Of a DNA stretch of 64,000 nucleotides, positions 16,003 through 54,419 are shown piece after piece; within the stretch, counting starts at the first letter, position 1, and each line of letters starts with the position of its first letter. Both the position numbers and the translations under genes were made by a program. This DNA is from a virus (taxonomy: Duplodnaviria; Caudoviricetes), in IMG/VR virus record IMGVR_UViG_3300028048_003227, positions 48,409 to 112,408 of that record. One strand, written 5' to 3'. The notes under the pieces are model-generated. The model saw only the letters and a program-made list of their open reading frames with translations. It had not been told where the DNA came from and did not search any database.

Positions 16003-16209
16003 ATGACTTTTATTTGTAAAGAAGATTTAGTAGAAATGCTTACTAAAGAAATGAATATTGCTCACTCGCTTTCTTATAATAGTGAGGGAATTATAGATAA
16101 TCAGGGCAACTATTTACCAGGTTGTGACTTTCATAGGAGCCTTGCACAAATGGAATACAATACCTTAAAAATTGTTTATGACTTTGTTCAAAATATGAAA
16201 ACAATATGA
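16003..16209 (+). CDS. hypothetical protein
   Basis: ORF. Confidence 0.55.
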   Translation: MTFICKEDLVEMLTKEMNIAHSLSYNSEGIIDNQGNYLPGCDFHRSLAQMEYNTLKIVYDFVQNMKTI

Positions 16210-16640
16210 TTACTGAAGATTACGTCAGTTTTGAAACCGCCAAACTCTTGAAAGAAAAAGGGTTTGATTGGCCGGAATCTCCATTTTATTCAGAGCAAGA
16301 TAGAGATGAGTGGCGGCAGAACAATAGTTACACCGTTCCTAATGAAGAATATAATCCCGAACTTCCTTTTGATTCAGAAACATTGACACTGGTGGCTCCA
16401 CACGTTTCACTTCAAATGGCAATGAAATGGCTGAGAGAAAAACATCATTACAATATTGAGATTGACACCATTGGTCTAAAATACCTCAATACTTTGTCGT
16501 GGAGAAGTGTGATTTATAATCCGGAATATGATATGGAATGCTATTATGAAGACGGTTTTAAGACTTACGAAGAAGCCTGTGAAGCAGCCATTAAGTATTG
16601 TTTAGAGAATTTGGTTTGTGAAAAAGAGATAGAACTATGA
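16206..16640 (+). CDS. paralog family A protein (ITEDYVSFETAKLLKEKGF...YEEACEAAIKYCLENL)
   Basis: 5 copies in window. Confidence 0.8.
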   Translation: MITEDYVSFETAKLLKEKGFDWPESPFYSEQDRDEWRQNNSYTVPNEEYNPELPFDSETLTLVAPHVSLQMAMKWLREKHHYNIEIDTIGLKYLNTLSWRSVIYNPEYDMECYYEDGFKTYEEACEAAIKYCLENLVCEKEIEL

Positions 16641-17235: not shown

Positions 17236-17363
17236 GAATATGTGAAGCAGATGGGATGTGCTACTAGAGAAAATCAAAACGCTAGGCACCTACTTGAAAA
17301 AGTTTGATAGGGAGTTAAGAGAATGTTATTTAGGCTATGTTGGTTCGAATCCAACCATATTCA
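17236..17363 (+). ncRNA. tRNA-like RNA with 60-nt anticodon-loop expansion
   Basis: GAATATG/CATATTC acceptor, agca/tgct D-stem, gttgg-ttcgaat-ccaac T-arm. Confidence 0.65.
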
Positions 17364-17370
17364 CAAGGAA

Positions 17371-17445
17371 GGTCTCGTGGCGCAACTGGATGAGCGCACC
17401 AGTCTTTTAAACTGGGGGTTATGGGTTCGAGTCCCATCGGGATCA
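17371..17445 (+). tRNA. tRNA-Lys(UUU)
   Basis: cloverleaf, CCAGT-CTTTTAA-ACTGG. Confidence 0.85.
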
Positions 17446-17564
17446 CAAAATAAGTTCGTTGAAATAAAATCAATCCGCCCAGTCGGAAAAGTAAGGTAAA
17501 GTAAAAGATACTTTGTAAAACGTCGATTCGTACGCCTGAAATAAAAAAGTGGTACTTGATTTAT

Positions 17565-17647
17565 GGGGATATGCTGAAACTGGTAGACAGGCATGCTTGA
17601 GGTGCATGTGGGTTAATCCCGTGAGAGTTCGAGTCTCTCTATCCCCA
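17565..17647 (+). tRNA. tRNA-Leu(GAG)
   Basis: CATGC-TTGAGGT-GCATG, long variable arm. Confidence 0.9.
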
Positions 17648-17668
17648 CAAAAAAAACAACAAATTTTT

Positions 17669-17711
17669 ACTAAATCTTTACAACATGTTTAGTATATATA
17701 ATTTGTAAGAG
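17669..17711 (+). promoter_or_regulatory. second copy of ACTAAAT...ATATATAATTTGTAAGAG promoter motif
   Basis: direct repeat of 17181-17222. Confidence 0.55.
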
Positions 17712-17734
17712 AGATCATTAAAATAACGAATTTT

Positions 17735-17808
17735 CCTCTGGTGGCGCAGTTGGTTAGCGCAGGAAGCTTATACCTTCAAGGTCGGTGGTTCAAGTCCATC
17801 CTAGAGGA
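17735..17808 (+). tRNA. tRNA-Ile(UAU)
   Basis: cloverleaf, loop CTTATAC, A73. Confidence 0.8.
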
Positions 17809-17957
17809 CCGGGATAATGATATCTCGAAGTTCTTTGACAAGTTTGGAAAGATATATAATATGAGTTATGATGAACAAATCCTCGGAGGACATGAGTTCC
17901 TCTGTGGTGTACCACAATCGGGTGGTACTTCGCCAGGGCAGTAATGTCTTGGCTTTA

Positions 17958-18111
17958 CGGGATGTAGTTCAGTTGGTAGAATGCCTGGTTTGGTTACAGT
18001 TAACCAATAGCTGAGAAATTGGTGTTCGGATATAATAAAGGAAGATTCATGAGTTCGAATCTCATATATCCGACGACCAGGTGGTCCTCCGTTCGAGTCG
18101 GAGTATCCCGA
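17958..18111 (+). tRNA. tRNA-Pro(UGG) split by 81-nt insert (17994-18074) between positions 36/37
   Basis: joined exons give CCTGG-TTTGGGA-CCAGG with C1-G72, A73. Confidence 0.85.
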
Positions 18112-18149
18112 CTTAATAAATGTCATTTAATATTTTATTATATTTATAT

Positions 18150-19010
18150 ATGATAAATATTTGTAAATATTGTGGCAAAAAATTTGAAACTTCTAACTCA
18201 AAACAAGTTTTCTGCAGTAAAGAGTGTAGTGCAAAATATCAACAACAAAATGCAATAGATAGTGTTAAAAAATATAAAGAGATTCGAATTCAAAAGTATT
18301 ACGAATCTCCAAAGAAATGCAAATATTGCGATTCTATTTTACCGTATGAAGAGAGATCTAAAACATTTTGTAATTCTTCTTGCGCCGCCGCATATAATAA
18401 TTCAAAAAGAATTAGACATTCTTGGAGTGATGAACAGAAAAAGAATTTATCTGAAATAATGATTAATAAACACAAAGATAATTATAATGATAATTCTTCA
18501 AACACCACAACCACACCCAGAAAGAAAATATGTAAGTATTGTGGAAAAGAATTTGTTTCTCATCAATTATCAAGTGGTAAATATTCAAGTTCTAAATTTT
18601 GTTCACATGAATGTAAAAGGTTAAACAATATAGAAGTTGGTAAAAAAGCTATAATCATAAACAAAGAAAAAGGAACGTGGAAGCCTTGGCAAAGTAGAAA
18701 TATTAGTTCTTATCCCGAAAAATTTTTCGAAAAGGTTTTAGATAATAACTTTATATCATATATAAGAGAAAAATACATTGATGGTTATTTTTTAGATTTT
18801 TATATAGAGAAAAACAATAGAGTTATCGATTTGGAAATAGATGGGGATCAACACGAAGAAACACAGGAAAAAGATCGAATAAGAGATGAATATTTAAAAG
18901 ATCAAAATATTGAGGTGTATAGAATTAAATGGAATTCTATTAATTCAAATAAGGGAAAAGAATCTATGAAAAACAAAATAGATGATTTTTTAAGTTTCTA
19001 TAATAAATAA
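18150..19010 (+). CDS. free-standing homing endonuclease (Zn-finger repeats plus Vsr/DUF559-like domain)
   Basis: CxxC...FCSxxC repeats; YFLDF...LEIDGDQH. Confidence 0.8.
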   Translation: MINICKYCGKKFETSNSKQVFCSKECSAKYQQQNAIDSVKKYKEIRIQKYYESPKKCKYCDSILPYEERSKTFCNSSCAAAYNNSKRIRHSWSDEQKKNLSEIMINKHKDNYNDNSSNTTTTPRKKICKYCGKEFVSHQLSSGKYSSSKFCSHECKRLNNIEVGKKAIIINKEKGTWKPWQSRNISSYPEKFFEKVLDNNFISYIREKYIDGYFLDFYIEKNNRVIDLEIDGDQHEETQEKDRIRDEYLKDQNIEVYRIKWNSINSNKGKESMKNKIDDFLSFYNK

Positions 19011-19020
19011 ACTCATATTT

Positions 19021-19712
19021 GGCCTCGTGGTGGAATAGGTAGACACAAGGGACTCGTAAAGCATTGATTTATAATCATTATAATCAATTATGGGTTGCAC
19101 CCTCCGAAAGGAGAGATGTAGAACCTCCCTAATTCGGTGAAAGCTAAGTTTGGATGTACAGGAATGTATCGGATAATCGTCTAAATTAGTTGGTGAATTA
19201 TCAACAGTAGTACATAGTTAACTGATTTTCAGTAATGATAGCAGTCGTTTAGAATCTATGTGTAAGAAGACAGTCCAGATATGCTAATACCGAGCCAATG
19301 TTAAAATTACGAAATAGGTGATGCCGTAGGTGAATAGCTTCAGCCGAAAGTACAACACGCCGACCAACCCCAGCGGGAGTATGTTCGTAACCAATAGACA
19401 GTGTGTAGAGACTATACAGGAGGGACCTAAGTTGAAAGTATAATAATGGCGCGAAATTTAGTTAGTTTGTTAACTGCTAATACCGATTATAGAGATGTAT
19501 ACTCTTCATATCGGTGCTAAAATAAGGTTATTATCTTGCAAGATTTCAATATGGTTAAGAGAGAGTCCAGACCACGAACAATGTTCTCAATAGATTAAAG
19601 AGTTTATTCGCCTACATGGTTCTATTGAATGAAGTTGGTAGCAAAAGCTATAGTGGTACGTAAAATCCCTCGGACAGCAATGTCCGTGCCGGTTCGACTC
19701 CGGCCGGGGCTA
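19021..19712 (+). tRNA. tRNA-Leu(UAA) containing a group I intron
   Basis: exons 19021-19054 and 19661-19712 give AGGGA-CTTAAAA-TCCCT. Confidence 0.88.
19055..19660 (+). mobile_element. group I intron (IC3-like), 606 nt, no ORF
   Basis: 5' exon ends in U, intron ends in G; P/Q/R/S-like AATTCGGTGAAA, AATACCGAGC, GTAGAGACTA, AAGAGAGAGTCC; cctcc/ggagg P3. Confidence 0.88.
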
Positions 19713-19717
19713 CAAAT

Positions 19718-19804
19718 GGGAGTCTTGGTAGCTGGAAAAATCAGCAGACTGTAAATCTGTCGCATACAAATAAGCCTATGGGGGTTCGAGTCCCTCGGCT
19801 CCCA
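19718..19804 (+). tRNA. tRNA-Tyr(GUA), degenerate D-arm
   Basis: GCAGA-CTGTAAA-TCTGT; GGGAGTC/GGCTCCC. Confidence 0.75.
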
Positions 19805-19813
19805 CACTCATAT

Positions 19814-19930
19814 ATCACTTTAGCTCAAGAGTTCGTTATCAAAGACACGTTGGTCTTCGAGACTGACGTTATAAAAGAGCCCCGGATTTTACTGGGAGAT
19901 GTGCCGTGCAACGAGTAGGTACAGGTGATG
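19814..19930 (+). ncRNA. tRNA-like RNA with 50-nt D-loop, 6-nt anticodon loop and 12-nt T-loop
   Basis: all four stems pair but loops are non-canonical. Confidence 0.55.
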
Positions 19931-19936
19931 ATTTAT

Positions 19937-20029
19937 TACGGATTAGCTCAGAGGTTAGAGCTTAATTGGATGAACCCGAGTTCTTACATAAGGCATCAGT
20001 GGTCGTAGGTTCGAATCCTGCATCCGTAG
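19937..20029 (+). ncRNA. tRNA-like RNA with expanded, branched anticodon domain
   Basis: TACGGAT/ATCCGTA; canonical D and T arms. Confidence 0.65.
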
Positions 20030-20030
20030 C

Positions 20031-20114
20031 AAGAACCAACTGGTAGGAGGTAGTATACACAATTGGGTGAGTTGCGAGCTATATTCGCGCTGTGGGGTGT
20101 ATAATTTGGTTCTT
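20031..20114 (+). ncRNA. putative small structured RNA
   Basis: aagaacca/tggttctt, tatacac/gtgtata and gcgag/ttcgc nested stems. Confidence 0.4.
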
Positions 20115-20119
20115 TTTGT

Positions 20120-20194
20120 GGTCCTGTAGCCCAACTGGAAGATGGCAATAGACTTAGGATCTATTCAGTGAGAGTTCGAATCTCTCCAGGACTA
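20120..20194 (+). tRNA. tRNA-Leu(UAG) with short variable arm
   Basis: ATAGA-CTTAGGA-TCTAT; 5-nt variable region. Confidence 0.8.
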
Positions 20195-20196
20195 CT

Positions 20197-20379
20197 AAAT
20201 ATCAAGTGAGGGTAGAAGGAATGCCTTGAGATTTTGAAGAGTAGGTTGCAGTGAAATTCAAAATTGAGATAGGAGACGGTGGTACAGGGTTCTGTGAGAA
20301 ATTCGATATGTGCATGGAACCCCGAGGCCGATGGAGTTCTCGACTGACTGCAAGGTTGGAGAACAGTAACTTGATATTT
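20197..20379 (+). ncRNA. unknown structured RNA (about 183 nt)
   Basis: 11-bp closing stem; ttgcagt/actgcaa loop-loop complement. Confidence 0.55.
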
Positions 20380-20383
20380 TTAT

Positions 20384-20457
20384 TGAAGTGTAGCGCAATT
20401 GGTCAGAGCATCAGATTTTGGTTCTGAGGGTTGTGAGTTCGAGTCTCACCACTTCAA
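20384..20457 (+). tRNA. tRNA-Gln(UUG)
   Basis: TCAGA-TTTTGGT-TCTGA. Confidence 0.9.
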
Positions 20458-20477
20458 CAAAATAACTCATATGGAAA

Positions 20478-20552
20478 GACCTCGTAGCTCAGTTGGTTTA
20501 GAGCACCTCCCTTTTAAGGAGGGGGTCACGAGTTCGAGCCTCGTCGGGGTCA
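20478..20552 (+). tRNA. tRNA-Lys(UUU)
   Basis: CCTCC-CTTTTAA-GGAGG. Confidence 0.9.
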
Positions 20553-20637
20553 CAAATAGTATGGGTCAAAAGACATAATCTTGCAAGGATTATAATACAG
20601 TAACTAATCCCATACTTTTAAATCCACAATGGCAGAT

Positions 20638-20685
20638 GCGCACAGTCCCGGAGTGGTTGAGGGAGGAGGGCTTGCAATAACCTCC
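20638..20685 (+). pseudogene. 5' fragment of a tRNA (GCA triplet in an enlarged loop, Cys-like)
   Basis: D-arm and ggagg/cctcc stem only; no T-arm. Confidence 0.4.
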
Positions 20686-20696
20686 AAACAATAGGA

Positions 20697-20771
20697 AGCC
20701 TTGTAAGCTTAATTGGTAGAGTCCTGATCAGAAGGTCGGGGGGGTTAAGAGTTCGAATCTCTTCAAGGCAA
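20697..20771 (+). ncRNA. tRNA-like RNA with 8-nt non-canonical anticodon loop
   Basis: gccttg/caaggc, cctga-tcagaagg-tcggg, canonical T-arm. Confidence 0.55.
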
Positions 20772-20829
20772 CTAATTCTAAATGTTTTTCATTTCTTATA
20801 TATTTTTAATAAATTAAACACAGATTTAC

Positions 20830-21267
20830 ATGAAGAAACTTTTTCTTGCTATCGCAATGATGTTTGGAGCACTCGCTGCTACATCTTGCAAGGATACTGT
20901 TGCAGTTGTGTACAGTATCAATGTTGAGGGAAGCGCTAACGGTGACGTGGTTGTGACTTTCCCTAACGGTAATCTTGAACTTAATGGACAGACCGGTCTT
21001 CTTTTCGCTTATTCAAATGATACCGCTCCTCTCACTAAGGCTGCTGTAAAGGGTGTTGCTGTTGAGGAAGCTGCAGAGAGTGATCAGAAGGAGGTTCGTT
21101 CCCTCGCAGAGACCATCGAGAGTGGGTTTACTGTTGTCTTTAAGGATGCCACCGCTGGTGGTGAGTATCACGTAAAGATTCACGGATATGCTAAGGAGCC
21201 TACCACAGGTATTACTATCCTGATTGATAAGTCCTTTGATTATCCCGCTCCTGTTGATCAGAAGTAA
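20830..21267 (+). CDS. lipoprotein (signal peptidase II signal)
   Basis: MKK-hydrophobic-ATSC lipobox. Confidence 0.8.
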   Translation: MKKLFLAIAMMFGALAATSCKDTVAVVYSINVEGSANGDVVVTFPNGNLELNGQTGLLFAYSNDTAPLTKAAVKGVAVEEAAESDQKEVRSLAETIESGFTVVFKDATAGGEYHVKIHGYAKEPTTGITILIDKSFDYPAPVDQK

Positions 21268-21297
21268 TTATGATTTGCCACTGTGTGGCAAATTTAT

Positions 21298-21370
21298 GCT
21301 CGGTTAGTGAAGTGGTAATCACGCTACCCTTTCAAGGTAGAGTCGCGCTGTTCAATTCAGGCACCGAGTA
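21298..21370 (+). tRNA. tRNA-Glu(UUC)
   Basis: CTACC-CTTTCAA-GGTAG. Confidence 0.85.
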
Positions 21371-21397
21371 CAAATTATTATTTATAGTAAATTAAAC

Positions 21398-21470
21398 GGC
21401 TTGGTGGCGCAATGGTCAGCGCAATTGACTGTTAATCAATGGGTTATAGGTTCGAGTCCTGTCCAAGCCG
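21398..21470 (+). tRNA. tRNA-Asn(GUU)
   Basis: ATTGA-CTGTTAA-TCAAT, G73. Confidence 0.9.
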
Positions 21471-21479
21471 CAAAAATAT

Positions 21480-21553
21480 GGTGCATTGGTGAAGCTGGTT
21501 ATCATGCTACCCTGTCACGGTAGAGTTCGTCGGTTCGAACCCGTCATGCACCG
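21480..21553 (+). tRNA. tRNA-Asp(GUC)
   Basis: CTACC-CTGTCAC-GGTAG, G73. Confidence 0.9.
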
Positions 21554-21659
21554 CGTGAGCCCGAAGTACAAGGGATCGAAGATAGGAAATCTTTGTCATT
21601 TCCTCCGAATCGTAGGTCGGCACAGTTACATCTCTGGGGATAGTATAAAAGATGTTTAT

Positions 21660-21734
21660 GGGGCCGTAGCAAAATTGGTAACCGCGCAGCATTTGCACTG
21701 CTGAGATTTGAGGGTTCGAGTCCCTTCGGCTCCA
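21660..21734 (+). tRNA. tRNA-Ala(UGC)
   Basis: G3:U70; CAGCA-TTTGCAC-TGCTG. Confidence 0.9.
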
Positions 21735-21744
21735 CGACTTGTAC

Positions 21745-21936
21745 AACTAACGCTTCACGGAATAAACTCGATGGATTGGAGAAACATCGGGGTGTGAACC
21801 GCAAAAGGTGATATAAGCAGGTGTAGGATGATGTCATTAACTCCAAATATAGGACATGTAAAGTAACACTGAAGGGTATCACTGGAAGAGTACTAAGAGA
21901 AATCCTTTTTAGAGACTGTGTCAACATGTGTTAGTT
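21745..21936 (+). ncRNA. unknown structured RNA (about 192 nt)
   Basis: aactaacgc/gtgttagtt closing stem; ttggag/ctccaa loop-loop complement. Confidence 0.5.
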
Positions 21937-22032
21937 TAGGTATTGCCCATCAACCAAGCAGTTGAATGGGGTAACGGGATCGCTCGAAGAACGATTCTTG
22001 GGTTGGCCGCATTACCGTAAATGCGGCATTTT

Positions 22033-22192
22033 GGGAGCATAGCTCAGTTGGTTTAGAGCACCTGCCTTAATACAGGGTAATCCACTGTGACGGATTAGCA
22101 AGATGTTAAAAGTGGTGAAGTGCATAATAAGAGTTCGATTCTCTTCATCTTGCCCAAGCAGGGGGTCATTAGTTCGAATCTAATTGTTCCCA
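22033..22192 (+). tRNA. tRNA-Val(UAC) split by 85-nt insert (22070-22154) between positions 35/36
   Basis: joined exons give CCTGC-CTTACAA-GCAGG with Val-type body. Confidence 0.85.
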
Positions 22193-22206
22193 CACATAGA
22201 CATACA

Positions 22207-22312
22207 TGGAGGTTTGTGTGCAGACCTTTGCAAGTCCGTTAATGATCAGACGGATACTACATAGATCCATAGAAATACAGCTGGTACCTGATCACAATAT
22301 AGTTAACCTCCA
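22207..22312 (+). ncRNA. unknown pseudoknotted RNA (about 106 nt)
   Basis: tggaggtt/aacctcca; loop tgatcag complementary to ctgatca. Confidence 0.5.
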
Positions 22313-22388
22313 CCCATATCATATTTATATCTTTCCAAACTTGCATAGGATTCTGTAAAGAATCCTTTTTATTTATTTATTTTTTATT

Positions 22389-22768
22389 AGTTCTTTGAAG
22401 GTATAAGATAAATGCAGACAGACCTACTCCCACTATTGTAGGAGACTACCATGACAATAAATGGTTTAAACAGCACCCGGATCGTAAGTCGGGACCATGA
22501 GGAATGAGAGTTATATGAAAGTATAACCTATCTACAAACCAGTGAAACCTGAACGGAATCACTGAAGATATTGTAGTTTGTAATAATGGAAGTCTGATGA
22601 GAAAACAAGCTTATACTGATGTAGAGGCTTGCAAAGAGCAAAATCGGCAAATCGCGTAATGCCTTCGGTATAAACCCGACGTTGGTTGGTGTGTTGCAAC
22701 GATAGTCAGAACACAATCGCTTATGTGGTTCCTGGAGTGGCTTATTGAGCGTAATCAATTAAAGAACT
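22389..22768 (+). ncRNA. unknown large structured RNA (about 380 nt)
   Basis: agttcttt/aaagaact ends, gaaggtat/atgccttc, many hairpins. Confidence 0.55.
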
Positions 22769-22777
22769 CCATACAAT

Positions 22778-22850
22778 GCCGGTGTAGCTCAATTGACAGA
22801 GCGGCTGATTTGTAATCAGCAGGTTATTGGTTTGATTCCGATCATCGGCT
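22778..22850 (+). tRNA. tRNA-Thr(UGU)
   Basis: GCTGA-TTTGTAA-TCAGC. Confidence 0.88.
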
Positions 22851-22855
22851 CATTC

Positions 22856-22886
22856 AAAGACCACCTCGCAAGAGATGGTCTTTTTG
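22856..22886 (+). terminator. terminator closing the tRNA array
   Basis: aaagacca-cctcgcaagaga-tggtcttttt. Confidence 0.7.
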
Positions 22887-22918
22887 TTTATTATTTGATT
22901 AAATAAAAACAAATAACA

Positions 22919-31217: not shown

Positions 31218-31463
31218 ATGAAGGTAATTGAAGAACATAGAAAGGACTTGGAACCCAAGAAATCTAAAAAATATATCTACAAGTGTTACCACTGTGGTAG
31301 TGTGCTGGAGGTAGATAGTGAAGATATACATTATAAGGAAGAGTGGGGTGATATAGAAGAATATTTCACTTGTCCTGTGTGTGGTCGTCGCCGTTTGGTG
31401 TTTACAATTAAGCTACATCATTTAAAATCATTAAGAAAGTTATTTAACAAGAAATATAGGTGA
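31218..31463 (+). CDS. small Zn-ribbon protein
   Basis: CYHCG...CPVCG. Confidence 0.65.
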   Translation: MKVIEEHRKDLEPKKSKKYIYKCYHCGSVLEVDSEDIHYKEEWGDIEEYFTCPVCGRRRLVFTIKLHHLKSLRKLFNKKYR

Positions 31464-31969
31464 AATACTTATTTCTCGACATAGACGGGGTCCTCAATCA
31501 CGAAGAGTGGTATGAGAAGAGGATAAAGGATTATAAAGACACTTTTACTTGTTGGGAGCAGGAGTGTTTTGATCCTGATTGTGTAGAGAGGGTAAATAGG
31601 ATTCTTAAAGAGACTGGTGCAAGACTTGTTGTGAGTAGTAGCTGGAGGTTAGATTTAAAATTAGCAAGAATATTCTCTCTTGTCGGTCTCCCGACCGATT
31701 TTGATGTTACTCCCACGGGAAACATCTACACAGGCGATTGTTATGATACCAGGGGAGAAGAAATAGAAGCTTTTCTCGAAGATAATCCTTGTGATCAGTA
31801 TGTTATCCTTGATGATGATAGAGATTTCAGTGAAGAACAATTAAATGAGCATTTTGTTCACTGCTGTACGGATTACCTACAGGCTCTTCAAGAAGGAAAT
31901 GAAGGACAAACAGGATTAACTGAATTAAAGATGAGGAAAGCAATCAATATATTAAATAAAATACAATAA
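31460..31969 (+). CDS. HAD phosphatase, Swiss-Army-knife RNA-repair-like
   Basis: FLDIDGVLN, VVSSSWR, YVILDDD. Confidence 0.8.
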   Translation: MKYLFLDIDGVLNHEEWYEKRIKDYKDTFTCWEQECFDPDCVERVNRILKETGARLVVSSSWRLDLKLARIFSLVGLPTDFDVTPTGNIYTGDCYDTRGEEIEAFLEDNPCDQYVILDDDRDFSEEQLNEHFVHCCTDYLQALQEGNEGQTGLTELKMRKAINILNKIQ

Positions 31970-48045: not shown

Positions 48046-49524
48046 ATGACACTCAAAGAACTATTTAAACAATCCGAAGACGGATTCGTAAACTACAGGG
48101 CAACGTTTACGAAGATTGATGCGGTCTTTCCTATAGAAGGGGCGGATCGTCTTGTGAGAGCTGTAGTATGTGGAAGAGATGTGGTGGTTTCAAAAGACCT
48201 CCCTCTTGACAGTACGTATGTTTATATCCCTGTTGAAACAAGTCTTTCTCATAAATATTTGAGTAAGAATAACCTCTATCGTATCTCAAGCGAATCCTAT
48301 CAACTTAATGATAACTTCGAAGAGGTTACTAAAATGCTTAATGAAGGGAAGAGTCTTGGAGATTGTGTGAGTATGGGTGGGTTCTTTGAGAAGAATGGAC
48401 GAGTAAAACAAATAAGGATTCGTGGAGTATATTCACAAGGTTATCTTGCTGATATCCAATCACTTAGAAACGCGTACCCTGTGCTTGATCAATGGATGGT
48501 TGATGAGTTTGAAGAGCTCGATGGGGTGAGTTTTGATGTGATCGGAGATGAGATATTCTGTGAGAAGTACCTTGTTGGTGGTAAGCATCTGGTTGATCCA
48601 CAGGCAGGTGGACAAAAACATTTCCGTCAGCGTTCCAAGAACCTCAAACACGCGCGATTACTCGTTCCGGGGCAGTTCTCTTATCACTATGATACCGCTC
48701 AGTTTGCAGATCATTATAAAGAGTTTAATCCCTCTAATGATGTAAGTATATCTGTGAAGGTACACGGAAGTAGCGGTATATTTGCTAATGTCCTTTGTTA
48801 TAAGCAAGCGGAAGGATGGTTTAAGAAAATTATTTATTCTATCTTTAAACCCAAAGAATACAGGCTTCTCTATGCCTCTCGCACAAAGATACGCAATGAG
48901 CGAGTTTATGACACTCCAAAAGAATCTAAGTTTTTCTATGGAAGTGATATCTGGGCTCCTGTTCGCGACCTACTCGCAGGACATATAGATAAAGGGATGA
49001 TCGTGTATGGAGAGATATGTGGATATGTTGAAGGAACCACGAAGATGATTCAGAAAGGTCATGACTATGGATGTGCACCAGGTCGATGGAAGTTCATGCC
49101 TTATAGGATTGTTAATGTGGATAGAGGAGGGAGAAGGACCGAATGGAACTTAAGAGATGTGGTGAAGTGGACGGACGATCTTCGTCAGCATCTCGCTATT
49201 GAACACCGATATGAAGGAGTGGATAAGATTATGCCTTGTCCCATTCTCTACGACGGACCGCTTGGAGATCTCTATCCTGATCTCAGTAAAGATGACGCTA
49301 GTTGGAACTTAGGACTTCTCGAAAGGATGAAGAGTGACAAGGAGAGATTTGGAATGGAGTTGCAGGAACCCCTATGTAAGATGAAAGCGCCTCGTGAAGG
49401 ACTTGTTATAAGAATTAATAACGACCCCGTTCCTCGAGCATGGAAGCTCAAGACCGCAGCTCACTACGACCTCGAGCGTAAGAGTCACGATAGTGGGGAG
49501 AGAGATATAGAAGAAGAATCTTAA
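48046..49524 (+). CDS. ATP-dependent RNA ligase, Rnl2/DRB0094-like
   Basis: PIEGAD N-domain; KVHG, YGEI, EGLVIR, KLK motifs. Confidence 0.85.
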   Translation: MTLKELFKQSEDGFVNYRATFTKIDAVFPIEGADRLVRAVVCGRDVVVSKDLPLDSTYVYIPVETSLSHKYLSKNNLYRISSESYQLNDNFEEVTKMLNEGKSLGDCVSMGGFFEKNGRVKQIRIRGVYSQGYLADIQSLRNAYPVLDQWMVDEFEELDGVSFDVIGDEIFCEKYLVGGKHLVDPQAGGQKHFRQRSKNLKHARLLVPGQFSYHYDTAQFADHYKEFNPSNDVSISVKVHGSSGIFANVLCYKQAEGWFKKIIYSIFKPKEYRLLYASRTKIRNERVYDTPKESKFFYGSDIWAPVRDLLAGHIDKGMIVYGEICGYVEGTTKMIQKGHDYGCAPGRWKFMPYRIVNVDRGGRRTEWNLRDVVKWTDDLRQHLAIEHRYEGVDKIMPCPILYDGPLGDLYPDLSKDDASWNLGLLERMKSDKERFGMELQEPLCKMKAPREGLVIRINNDPVPRAWKLKTAAHYDLERKSHDSGERDIEEES

Positions 49525-53078: not shown

Positions 53079-53660
53079 ATGAGGTATATTTTAACTGGAA
53101 CACAGGGAACCGGAAAATCAACACTACTGCATCATTTTGATGATAAAATGACTGTTGTAACAGAGGTTGTGAGGAATCTTGCAAAGACGGATGGTATTGC
53201 TGTTAATGAAAATGGCAATATGGAGGGTCAGACAAAAATTTTCAATACATATTATAATATTCTTTCAAATACTCCTGGACCATATATTTCCGATCGGGGT
53301 CTTACTGATGTCATTGCATATACTGTTTATAACATGAGCAGACTAATAAGTGAAGGGAGAATTAGTCAGGAGGAAGGACAGAGGTTTATTGAAGAACAAA
53401 TAAATCGTTTTATTGATTTCTCTGATAAGAATGAAGATGTTGTTTATTTCTATGTGCCGATTGAGTTTGACGTGGTGGACGATGGTTTCAGGAGTACTAA
53501 TGAGGAGTTCCGTAGGGAGATAGATAATAATATTAGTGAGTTGTTTGAATATATGGAAGGCCTCCATATGGGATTGAATGTATTTACGTTGAGAGGATCT
53601 GTAGAAGAGAGACTTGATACGATGGAAGAGATTATGAAAAATTACGGTGATATAAATTAA
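53079..53660 (+). CDS. P-loop NTPase / nucleotide kinase (NadR/AAA_28-like)
   Basis: GTQGTGKST, ISDRG, DDGFR. Confidence 0.75.
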   Translation: MRYILTGTQGTGKSTLLHHFDDKMTVVTEVVRNLAKTDGIAVNENGNMEGQTKIFNTYYNILSNTPGPYISDRGLTDVIAYTVYNMSRLISEGRISQEEGQRFIEEQINRFIDFSDKNEDVVYFYVPIEFDVVDDGFRSTNEEFRREIDNNISELFEYMEGLHMGLNVFTLRGSVEERLDTMEEIMKNYGDIN

Positions 53661-53672
53661 AAAAGTAAAATT

Positions 53673-54419
53673 ATGAGTGAATTTAAAGCAAACAAAGTAG
53701 TACTGAGTTGTTCGGGAGGGCTGGATTCCAGCTGCCTTTTACTTAAACTCCTTGCAGAAGGCAAAGAGGTGAGGTGTTATAGTTTTGATTATGGTCAGAA
53801 GCATAGGATTGAACTTGAGAAGATCAAGAAGAATATTGCTTTCCTACAGAGTAAGGGTCTTCCTGTTACTCACCAGATAGTAGATATGACCGGTGTGTTC
53901 TCAGGAAACACAAGTTCTCTTGTGGCCAGCACAGGTAAGGATATTCCACATGGTCATTATGCCGCAGAGAATATGAAGAGTACCGTGGTGCCTTTGAGAA
54001 ATGTATTGTTCAGTGCAGTGGTGTTCAGCAAGGCAATTAACTGGGCTGTAGAGAGTGGAGAAAATGTTATTATCAGTCTTGGTATACATGCGGGAGACCA
54101 TACTATCTATCCTGATTGTCGTCCAGAGAGCCGTGAGGCCTGCGAACATGCGTTTAAGGTCTCTGATTGGAATGCCGATAAGGTTGCTTACGAGGCGCCG
54201 TTTGTGAATATCGATAAGGGTGAGGTTCTTGCCGAAGGACTCCGTGCAATGAAGGCTCTTGGTTGGAGTGATGAGGATAGGGATGAGTTCCTTCGTAATA
54301 CTCATACTTGTTACGATCCGGATCCGGAAGGAAGGAGCTGTGGTAAGTGTGGTAGCTGCACCGAGAGACTTGAAGCATTTGAGAAGAATGGATTAAAAGA
54401 CCCGATTGAATATCAGTAA
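53673..54419 (+). CDS. queC: 7-cyano-7-deazaguanine synthase
   Basis: SGGLDS, YGQKH, VPLRN, YPDCR, TCY...CGKCGSC. Confidence 0.93.
   Translation: MSEFKANKVVLSCSGGLDSSCLLLKLLAEGKEVRCYSFDYGQKHRIELEKIKKNIAFLQSKGLPVTHQIVDMTGVFSGNTSSLVASTGKDIPHGHYAAENMKSTVVPLRNVLFSAVVFSKAINWAVESGENVIISLGIHAGDHTIYPDCRPESREACEHAFKVSDWNADKVAYEAPFVNIDKGEVLAEGLRAMKALGWSDEDRDEFLRNTHTCYDPDPEGRSCGKCGSCTERLEAFEKNGLKDPIEYQ

Follow-up and report, generated by a model that had tools for sequence, protein, structure and literature searches.

A mini-tRNA-bearing intervening sequence in the tRNA-Pro(UGG) gene of a T4-like phage

The only tRNA introns generally attributed to bacteria and their viruses are self-splicing ones. The tRNA-Pro(UGG) gene of a phage from bovine rumen or gut material is interrupted in its anticodon loop by an 81-nt insert carrying a miniature tRNA of its own, which raises the question of whether this insert is an intron and, if so, how it would be removed. 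The phage record (G000, from IMG/VR) is 112 kb long. The window, i.e., the whole stretch of 64,000 nucleotides that was analyzed, covers bases 48409-112408 of this record, and positions given without a contig name are those of the window. Coding density in G000 was 91% under the standard code, and T4-type portal, capsid, and gp32-like genes were encoded. A 221-kb contig held an exact-sequence copy of one G000 protein and may represent the same phage. The record also encoded eight DUF7487 paralogues, an anaerobic ribonucleotide reductase, a GIY-YIG SegE-like nuclease, and genes of the 7-deazaguanine pathway: QueC at 53673-54419 and, within the initial 48 kb of the record, a GTP cyclohydrolase of the FolE2 type.

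Structure of the split tRNA-Pro gene

The split gene was part of a cluster of about 17 tRNA genes (17250-22900) and comprised the following features:

17958-17993, + strand: tRNA-Pro(UGG) exon 1, tRNA positions 1-36 (acceptor 5' strand, D arm, anticodon stem 5' strand, loop bases 32-36)
17994-18025, + strand: intron 5' module, 32 nt (free base 17994, UACAG, helices P1 and P2)
18026-18073, + strand: armless mini-tRNA, 48 nt (8-bp acceptor-like stem, 15-nt linker at 18034-18048 that holds GG, T arm at 18049-18065)
18074, + strand: terminal C of the intron, with the 3' junction directly after it
18075-18111, + strand: tRNA-Pro exon 2, tRNA positions 37-73 (G37, A38, anticodon stem 3' strand, variable loop, T arm, acceptor 3' strand, A73)

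The precursor spanned 154 nt (17958-18111), and the 81-nt insert (17994-18074) was located between G36 and G37. When joined, the exons gave a C1-G72 pair, a 5-bp anticodon stem, the 7-nt loop UUUGGGA with UGG and G37, and A73. Two other rumen phage contigs (L001 and L002) contained an intron-free tRNA-Pro in which the 29 bases before and the seven bases after the insertion point were identical, and the borders of the insert were therefore unambiguous. A previous sequence-only reading had described an 81-nt mini-tRNA insert at this place and had claimed that its removal restores a perfect Pro cloverleaf; both claims were confirmed, the junction being the one seen in the intron-free tRNA-Pro of L001 and L002. 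This was the only tRNA-Pro in the window, as that reading had stated, and also in the whole 112-kb record. ARAGORN called the region as a chimeric tRNA-Ser.

The helices named in the same reading were present as described. The 6-bp hairpin 18003-18008/18018-18023 (P2), the stem 18026-18033/18066-18073 (8/8 pairs), and the T arm 18049-18065 (5/5 pairs, canonical T loop) were all present. A proposed pairing of 17997-18001 with 18009-18013 was found as well, but relatives kept just four of the five pairs, 17997-18000 with 18010-18013 (P1), and had A, G, or C at base 18009. Through P1, the start of the insert pairs with the P2 loop and forms an H-type pseudoknot. The Rfam tRNA model aligned over its full length to 18027-18073, treating the D and anticodon arms as deletions; the match of 23.1 bits (E 0.004) was under the gathering score.

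None of the 17 ordinary tRNAs of the cluster encoded CCA (3' ends within 17371-22851). A C directly followed base 73 in 14 of the 17, and most then entered an A-rich trailer. These 3' ends suggest a common 3' processing signal and reliance on a CCA-adding enzyme. The last C of the intron occupied the same position relative to the mini-tRNA as the C after base 73 in the ordinary tRNAs.

Several further tRNA-like elements were observed in the cluster. A free-standing acceptor/T-arm minihelix (17322-17363, within 17254-17363) was found just upstream of tRNA-Lys. A 94-nt tRNA-like gene (19937-20029) had good acceptor, D, and T arms and a 43-nt odd middle, and in a 75-nt tRNA-like gene (20697-20771), A1 and A72 were mismatched and a 7-bp hairpin closed by a 4-nt loop took the place of the anticodon arm. 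An element composed of UUACA and a hairpin (21627-21659), 33 bases upstream of an ordinary tRNA-Ala, resembled the intron 5' module in where it lies and how it begins; the likeness could be accidental or could reflect a common signal for leader processing.

Introns of the same plan and their borders

Further members of the intron family were found by searching with conserved 5' modules. An exact 23-mer of the mini-tRNA part had no match in the viral contigs searched, and homologues of the upstream ORF at 16206-16640 sat in loci without tRNA clusters. The introns collected came from six tRNA-Pro, two tRNA-Val, and two tRNA-Thr genes, and from four tRNA genes of the Lak-A2 phage. Besides the tRNA-Pro intron of G000, these were:

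22033-22192, + strand: tRNA-Val(UAC), the second case in the cluster of the window, with an 85-nt intron of the same plan (22070-22154) between A35 and C36
G002, a related 139-kb phage: intron-bearing tRNA-Pro and tRNA-Val
G003, a 345-kb phage: two intron-bearing tRNA-Thr(UGU)
Metagenome contigs: three further intron-bearing tRNA-Pro
L024, a 287-kb contig binned as a rumen Bacteroidales MAG: sixth intron-bearing tRNA-Pro
Lak-A2 (MK250019.1): four intron-bearing tRNAs, fitted by the same descriptor

An 81-nt intron was present at the same site in all six tRNA-Pro genes, which came from different phages or contigs. Alignment of the Pro, Val, and Lak introns together with MAFFT misplaced the 5' strands, and position-based parsing was used instead. 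One position-based descriptor, counted back from the 3' junction, recovered a common plan in 13 introns. The 5' part consisted of one free base and UA(A)CA opening a short first helix, within a 5' module of 27-33 nt. The 3' part consisted of an 8-bp stem, a GG-holding linker, a 5-bp T stem, a 7-nt T loop, the closing strand, and one C, followed by exon 2. The stem was paired at 8/8 positions in each of the ten introns parsed purely by position, a result that was extended to 13. In all 13, the closing strand was 8 nt long and was followed by a C, and the 3' junction fell 14 nt after the T loop. The Val/Thr-type introns (L009:10841-10958, minus strand; L011:8787-8885; L011:9789-9884) had the T-like loop UCCGAAG, in which C stands where a second U is usual, and their linkers shared a conserved GGGAGAA. 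The Val intron of G002 was 101 nt long and had an extra hairpin in the linker.

Three positions within the host anticodon loop were occupied by these introns: 36|37 (Pro; Lak Phe, Thr, and Gly), 35|36 (Val of G000; Lak "Tyr"), and 34|35 (Val of G002; both Thr of G003). Relative to the intron, the borders were constant: the 5' border lay one base before UACA and the 3' border one base after the mini-tRNA stem. Position +2 of the intron was always U, such that the 5' border was followed by a free base and then U. In the Val and Thr genes, removal at the intron borders restored a canonical loop every time. Because the Val-type 5' module occurs at two tRNA-Val sites and in tRNA-Thr, the introns are evidently mobile, and the cutter probably reads the shape of the intron itself. 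The Rfam tRNA match to tRNA-Val(UAC) (53.7 bits) spanned the insert. Intron-free Val tRNAs of other organisms matched up to 22069 and continued straight into exon-2 sequence. Loose contig ends at 22069 in the sequencing runs were considered as a spliced Val product and rejected, as they represented these intron-free Val tRNAs of other organisms.

Introns of this kind have been reported as "enigmatic" tRNA introns in Prevotella Lak megaphages (Devoto et al., 2019, Nat Microbiol, PMC6784885, Fig. 4, Table S6), and a 2026 survey of jumbo phages repeated the observation (PMC13037316); neither account gives a mechanism. On its sequence features, the tRNA-Pro insert is a member of this Lak-type family, a kind already in the literature. 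It shares the anticodon-loop site, the free base and UA(A)CA start, the short helix, the 8-bp stem, the GG linker, the T arm, the closing strand, and the final C, and its helices are maintained by compensated changes among homologues. Intron-free alleles exist for both, and the hosts of both are gut Bacteroidales. In contrast to the 540-kb recoded Lak megaphages, the phage studied here is T4-like and uses the standard code, and the tRNA that holds the present intron is Pro. The 5' module also differs, forming an H-type pseudoknot here versus a plain hairpin and A-rich linker in Lak.

One of the four Lak-A2 genes (L004:22533-22642, minus strand) was published as Tyr(GTA). Under the border rule of the family, its joined loop would be CUGUUAA, corresponding to Asn(GUU), and its variable loop was short, unlike that of bacterial tRNA-Tyr. 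In the first column sets (A-type Lak genomes) of the published tRNA table, the Asn(GTT) row is blank (PMC6784885). This intron-bearing Lak "Tyr" tRNA looks like a tRNA-Asn.

Selection on the split genes and the nature of the insert

Five of the six tRNA-Pro genes were aligned, and pairs were counted on the structure written from the G000 sequence. Across 44 pairs, 97.7% of cells were paired, versus 34-41% in slid controls, and the five unpaired cells all arose because L023 was aligned 1 nt out of register. Changes on both sides occurred in 22 of the 44 pairs, and 0/500 shuffles reached the observed values. The fold z-score of the insert was -2.4 to -3.1. With this z-score and with covariation beyond all shuffles and slid controls, the structure of the insert exceeds chance.

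The four helices of the outer tRNA were 100% paired in the five genes and contained 13 compensated pairs. All seven anticodon-loop bases, including UGG and G37, were invariant. The absence of exon decay noted from the G000 sequence thus extended to the relatives. The compensated changes and the invariant loop indicate that tRNA-Pro is under selection with the intron in place. In the mini-tRNA, compensated changes were found in seven of eight stem pairs and two of five T-stem pairs. The 32-nt 5' module varied at only three positions (alignment columns 46 and 53 and its last base), and its P1 and P2 pairs were invariant; the first stem pair after the module was also variable. In the Val/Thr-type introns, the sequence of P2 differed and its pairing was kept. 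This contrast in variation indicates that the outer tRNA is kept as a tRNA, whereas in the mini-tRNA it is the shape that is maintained and in the 5' module the sequence itself. Comparison of the genes showed that six lineages keep the helices of both the outer tRNA and the mini-tRNA by compensated changes, and the identification of the insert as a mini-tRNA-bearing intervening sequence in tRNA-Pro(UGG) is supported.

The same data bear on whether the insert is removed at all. If it never were, the outer tRNA would serve as a scaffold for processing or stability, or would have fallen victim to a selfish insertion, and the product would be the mini-tRNA, e.g., a decoy for tRNA-targeting defences. 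The mini-tRNA has everything that RNase P and RNase Z need and would be released by both, and a lone minihelix occurs outside any tRNA at 17322-17363. Spliced RNA was also absent among the contigs over the region: in three rumen metatranscriptome runs and one DNA run examined over 17300-22900, no contig bridged or skipped 17994-18074, and RNA contigs over the split tRNA-Pro ended inside exon 1. Against this reading stand the seven loop bases, invariant in six lineages, alongside exon stems that change by compensation, the status of the gene as the only tRNA-Pro of the phage record, and the Val and Thr borders that restore canonical loops each time. Permanent retention of the insert is accordingly considered unlikely.

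Removal could instead take place in DNA, with a tiny transposable or recombining insert being excised from the phage genome during infection. Intron-free and intron-bearing alleles both exist, and a nuclease gene adjoins the split tRNA. However, the borders had no terminal direct or inverted repeats, no recombinase gene was found nearby, and the features conserved were a T loop and RNA helices that contain G-U pairs, all of which make a DNA-level element highly improbable.

The near invariance of the 32-nt 5' module, while other parts of the tRNA-Pro genes diverged strongly, would suit a new small self-cleaving or self-splicing RNA, with the UACAG pseudoknot module as the catalytic core and the mini-tRNA as a scaffold or by-product. 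The pseudoknot is compact and lies near the two junctions, it is the intron rather than the host tRNA that sets the cut sites, and bacteria are without a known protein tRNA-splicing endonuclease. No Rfam ribozyme family matched even at E up to 10, however; the only matches were to the tRNA clan, and hammerhead, twister, pistol, hatchet, and HDV-like ribozymes were unmatched. The Lak introns have a 4-6-bp hairpin in place of the pseudoknot and share little sequence beyond UACA. The module is also very small (27-32 nt), and inspection revealed no exon-binding guide covarying with the different host anticodons. A catalytic RNA of this kind is therefore regarded as quite improbable. Group-I-like guide pairing between exon 1 UUGG and the P2 5' strand, which can be drawn for Pro, was rejected, as it was not conserved in the tRNA-Pro contig L020 or in the Val/Thr introns.

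Group I introns in tRNA anticodon loops, e.g., in tRNA-Leu(UAA), resemble the tRNA-Pro intron in interrupting the loop, in mobility, and in their frequent association with homing endonucleases. They differ in size (more than 200 nt versus 81 nt), in ending with G instead of C, and in having a P3-P9 core, which the tRNA-Pro intron lacks. Intron_gpI had no match to the tRNA-Pro intron at E up to 10 but did match the intron of the neighbouring tRNA-Leu. This type-II tRNA-Leu(UAA) gene (19021-19712) was interrupted by a group I intron that is about 610 nt long and contains no ORF (Intron_gpI at 19075-19589, 25.3 bits, E 0.0003, below the gathering score). With this group I intron and the Lak-type introns, the cluster holds two different intron kinds. 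The three rumen RNA runs piled up on 18983-19730, reaching a depth of 770-2100 and showing many joints, the pattern to be expected if other organisms carry related Leu introns.

Candidate enzymes and a proposed route of removal

Taken together, the sequence 17994-18074 is probably an RNA-level intron of the tRNA-shaped (Lak-type) family that is excised by tRNA end-processing nucleases, with the exons resealed by a phage ligase. Inserts of 80-110 nt are too small for self-splicing, yet six lineages keep the split tRNA-Pro; these introns would therefore follow a cut-and-rejoin route without archaeal or eukaryal enzymes. Archaeal bulge-helix-bulge introns are recognized by two 3-nt bulges and a 4-bp helix at the junctions and are cut by an EndA-type endonuclease. 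Archaeal and eukaryal introns (EndA/Sen, with RtcB or Trl1) resemble the present introns in being small, in lying in or near the anticodon loop, in being too small for self-splicing, and in being presumably cut and sealed by proteins. The present introns differ in having no conserved bulge-helix-bulge and in cut sites set by the tRNA mimic of the intron, and neither EndA nor a phage RtcB was found. EndA (PF01974) was absent from the four intron-bearing phage records and from bacterial controls, with matches only in archaea, and RtcB was absent from the same four phage records. A bulge-helix-bulge was rejected: a 4-bp exon-intron helix could be drawn for G000, was lost in L020, and was not conserved in the Val/Thr introns.

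A profile scan of the 149 ORFs of G000 for candidate processing enzymes and the neighbourhood of the split gene yielded these genes:

48046-49524, + strand: RNA-ligase-family gene with an N-terminal OB-like part and a nucleotidyltransferase domain, the candidate sealing enzyme
31460-31969, + strand: HAD phosphatase of the "Swiss Army Knife" RNA-repair type (Pfam HAD_SAK_2, 99 bits)
18120-19010, + strand: free-standing nuclease gene beside the split tRNA, with three Cys4 zinc-finger-like repeats and a C-terminal DUF559/Vsr-like domain, a candidate homing endonuclease

The ligase gene matched Pfam RNA_ligase (PF09414; 32.3 bits, above the cut-off) and PHROG 968 "RNA ligase" (E 7e-36), and a PDB sequence search with it gave no match. 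Homologues at 34-39% identity were present in G002, G003, and Lak-A2; none was found in the complete intron-free genome G001. The ligase also had no match in the MAG carrying L024, in an incomplete search. HAD_SAK_2 was likewise present in G002, G003, and Lak-A2 and absent from G001, and this phosphatase is a possible end-healing enzyme. The co-occurrence of ligase and HAD_SAK_2 with the introns (four intron-bearing records versus G001) is a hint drawn from five genomes with no statistic, and both genes are common in large phages. The Rnl1 profile PF09511 matched none of the phage records, but its control also matched nowhere, which makes this negative void. An AAA_28 ORF (53079-53660), which adjoins QueC, was considered as a polynucleotide kinase and not counted. 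On a 191-kb phage contig linked via one small ORF, a CCA-adding enzyme and a Thg1-like tRNA-His guanylyltransferase were encoded side by side (L019:3527-6080), both of them tRNA maturation genes carried by a phage.

The nuclease at 18120-19010 matched Pfam DUF559 (E 2.3e-10) and PHROG "HNH endonuclease" families. A homologue (39%) was directly downstream of the intron-bearing tRNA-Pro in G002, and another was inside the tRNA cluster of Lak-A2. The gene was absent from the 13.8-kb contig L023, which carries the intron. In DNA run X3, cover over the nuclease gene (18235-18982) was zero and no contig joined across it; this was not counted as absence of the gene. Judging from its domains and location, the nuclease most likely spreads the intron as DNA in the manner of a homing endonuclease. 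It could conceivably act as an RNA nuclease in intron removal.

With these genes, a route of removal can be outlined, each enzymatic step of which we infer. The split gene would be transcribed together with the tRNA cluster. The mini-tRNA would serve as a handle for ordinary tRNA 3'-end processing of the RNase Z/BN type, with cutting after the terminal C, the point at which the normal tRNAs of the cluster enter their A-rich trailer. A second metal-dependent nuclease would cut one base upstream of the first helix, the candidates being RNase E/G (U is always at +2) and RNase P, whose cuts fall at helix ends. The body of the outer tRNA would then hold the 3'-OH and 5'-phosphate ends together, and the phage ATP-dependent RNA ligase (48046-49524) would seal the exons. 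Cutting by a MazF/EndoA-type nuclease at U|ACA was rejected, since exon 1 would then retain two additional bases and Val would end up with a wrong anticodon.

Parts of this route have precedents. T4 tRNAs without CCA need host RNase BN/Z. In MALAT1-mascRNA (RNase P and RNase Z) and in the CCA-less tRNA precursors of T4, an embedded tRNA shape marks the ends to be cut, and only cutting takes place. In contrast, the route proposed here would also require that the flanks be rejoined and that another cut be made roughly 30 nt upstream of the mimic. Repair of the anticodon loop in T4 (PrrC, Pnkp, and Rnl1) is similar in that a phage ligase reseals a break in the loop and in that phosphatase-type healing genes are present. 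It differs in that the break in T4 arises from host attack and no intron is involved, and in that the ligase here is a PF09414 protein with an OB-like N-terminus, not Rnl1.

Two points weigh against the route. The canonical RNase Z cut is after base 73, and the 3' cut here falls one base past that site, after an 8-bp stem; RNase Z is expected to cut one base past a longer stem. In addition, the near-invariant 5' module fits a catalytic or a specific protein-binding role better than that of a passive leader. The full proposal, a third route of tRNA splicing in phages of bacteria, in which RNase Z together with RNase E/G or RNase P excises the intron and a phage ATP-dependent ligase joins the exons, is thus advanced tentatively.

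The new elements of the present case are a host that is not a megaphage and uses the standard code, a pseudoknotted 5' module, the border rule, the strong comparative case for functional split genes, and the candidate enzymes. The intron kind extends beyond recoded megaphages. Annotation pipelines miss or misname such tRNAs, as with the ARAGORN tRNA-Ser call here and the Lak "Tyr" that looks like Asn. The locus provides a compact substrate, in that the precursor is only 154 nt long, its cut sites are predicted exactly, the genome itself encodes a candidate ligase and a candidate phosphatase, and compensated variants occur naturally. If the proposed route is true, the maturation of certain phage tRNAs would depend on a phage gene.
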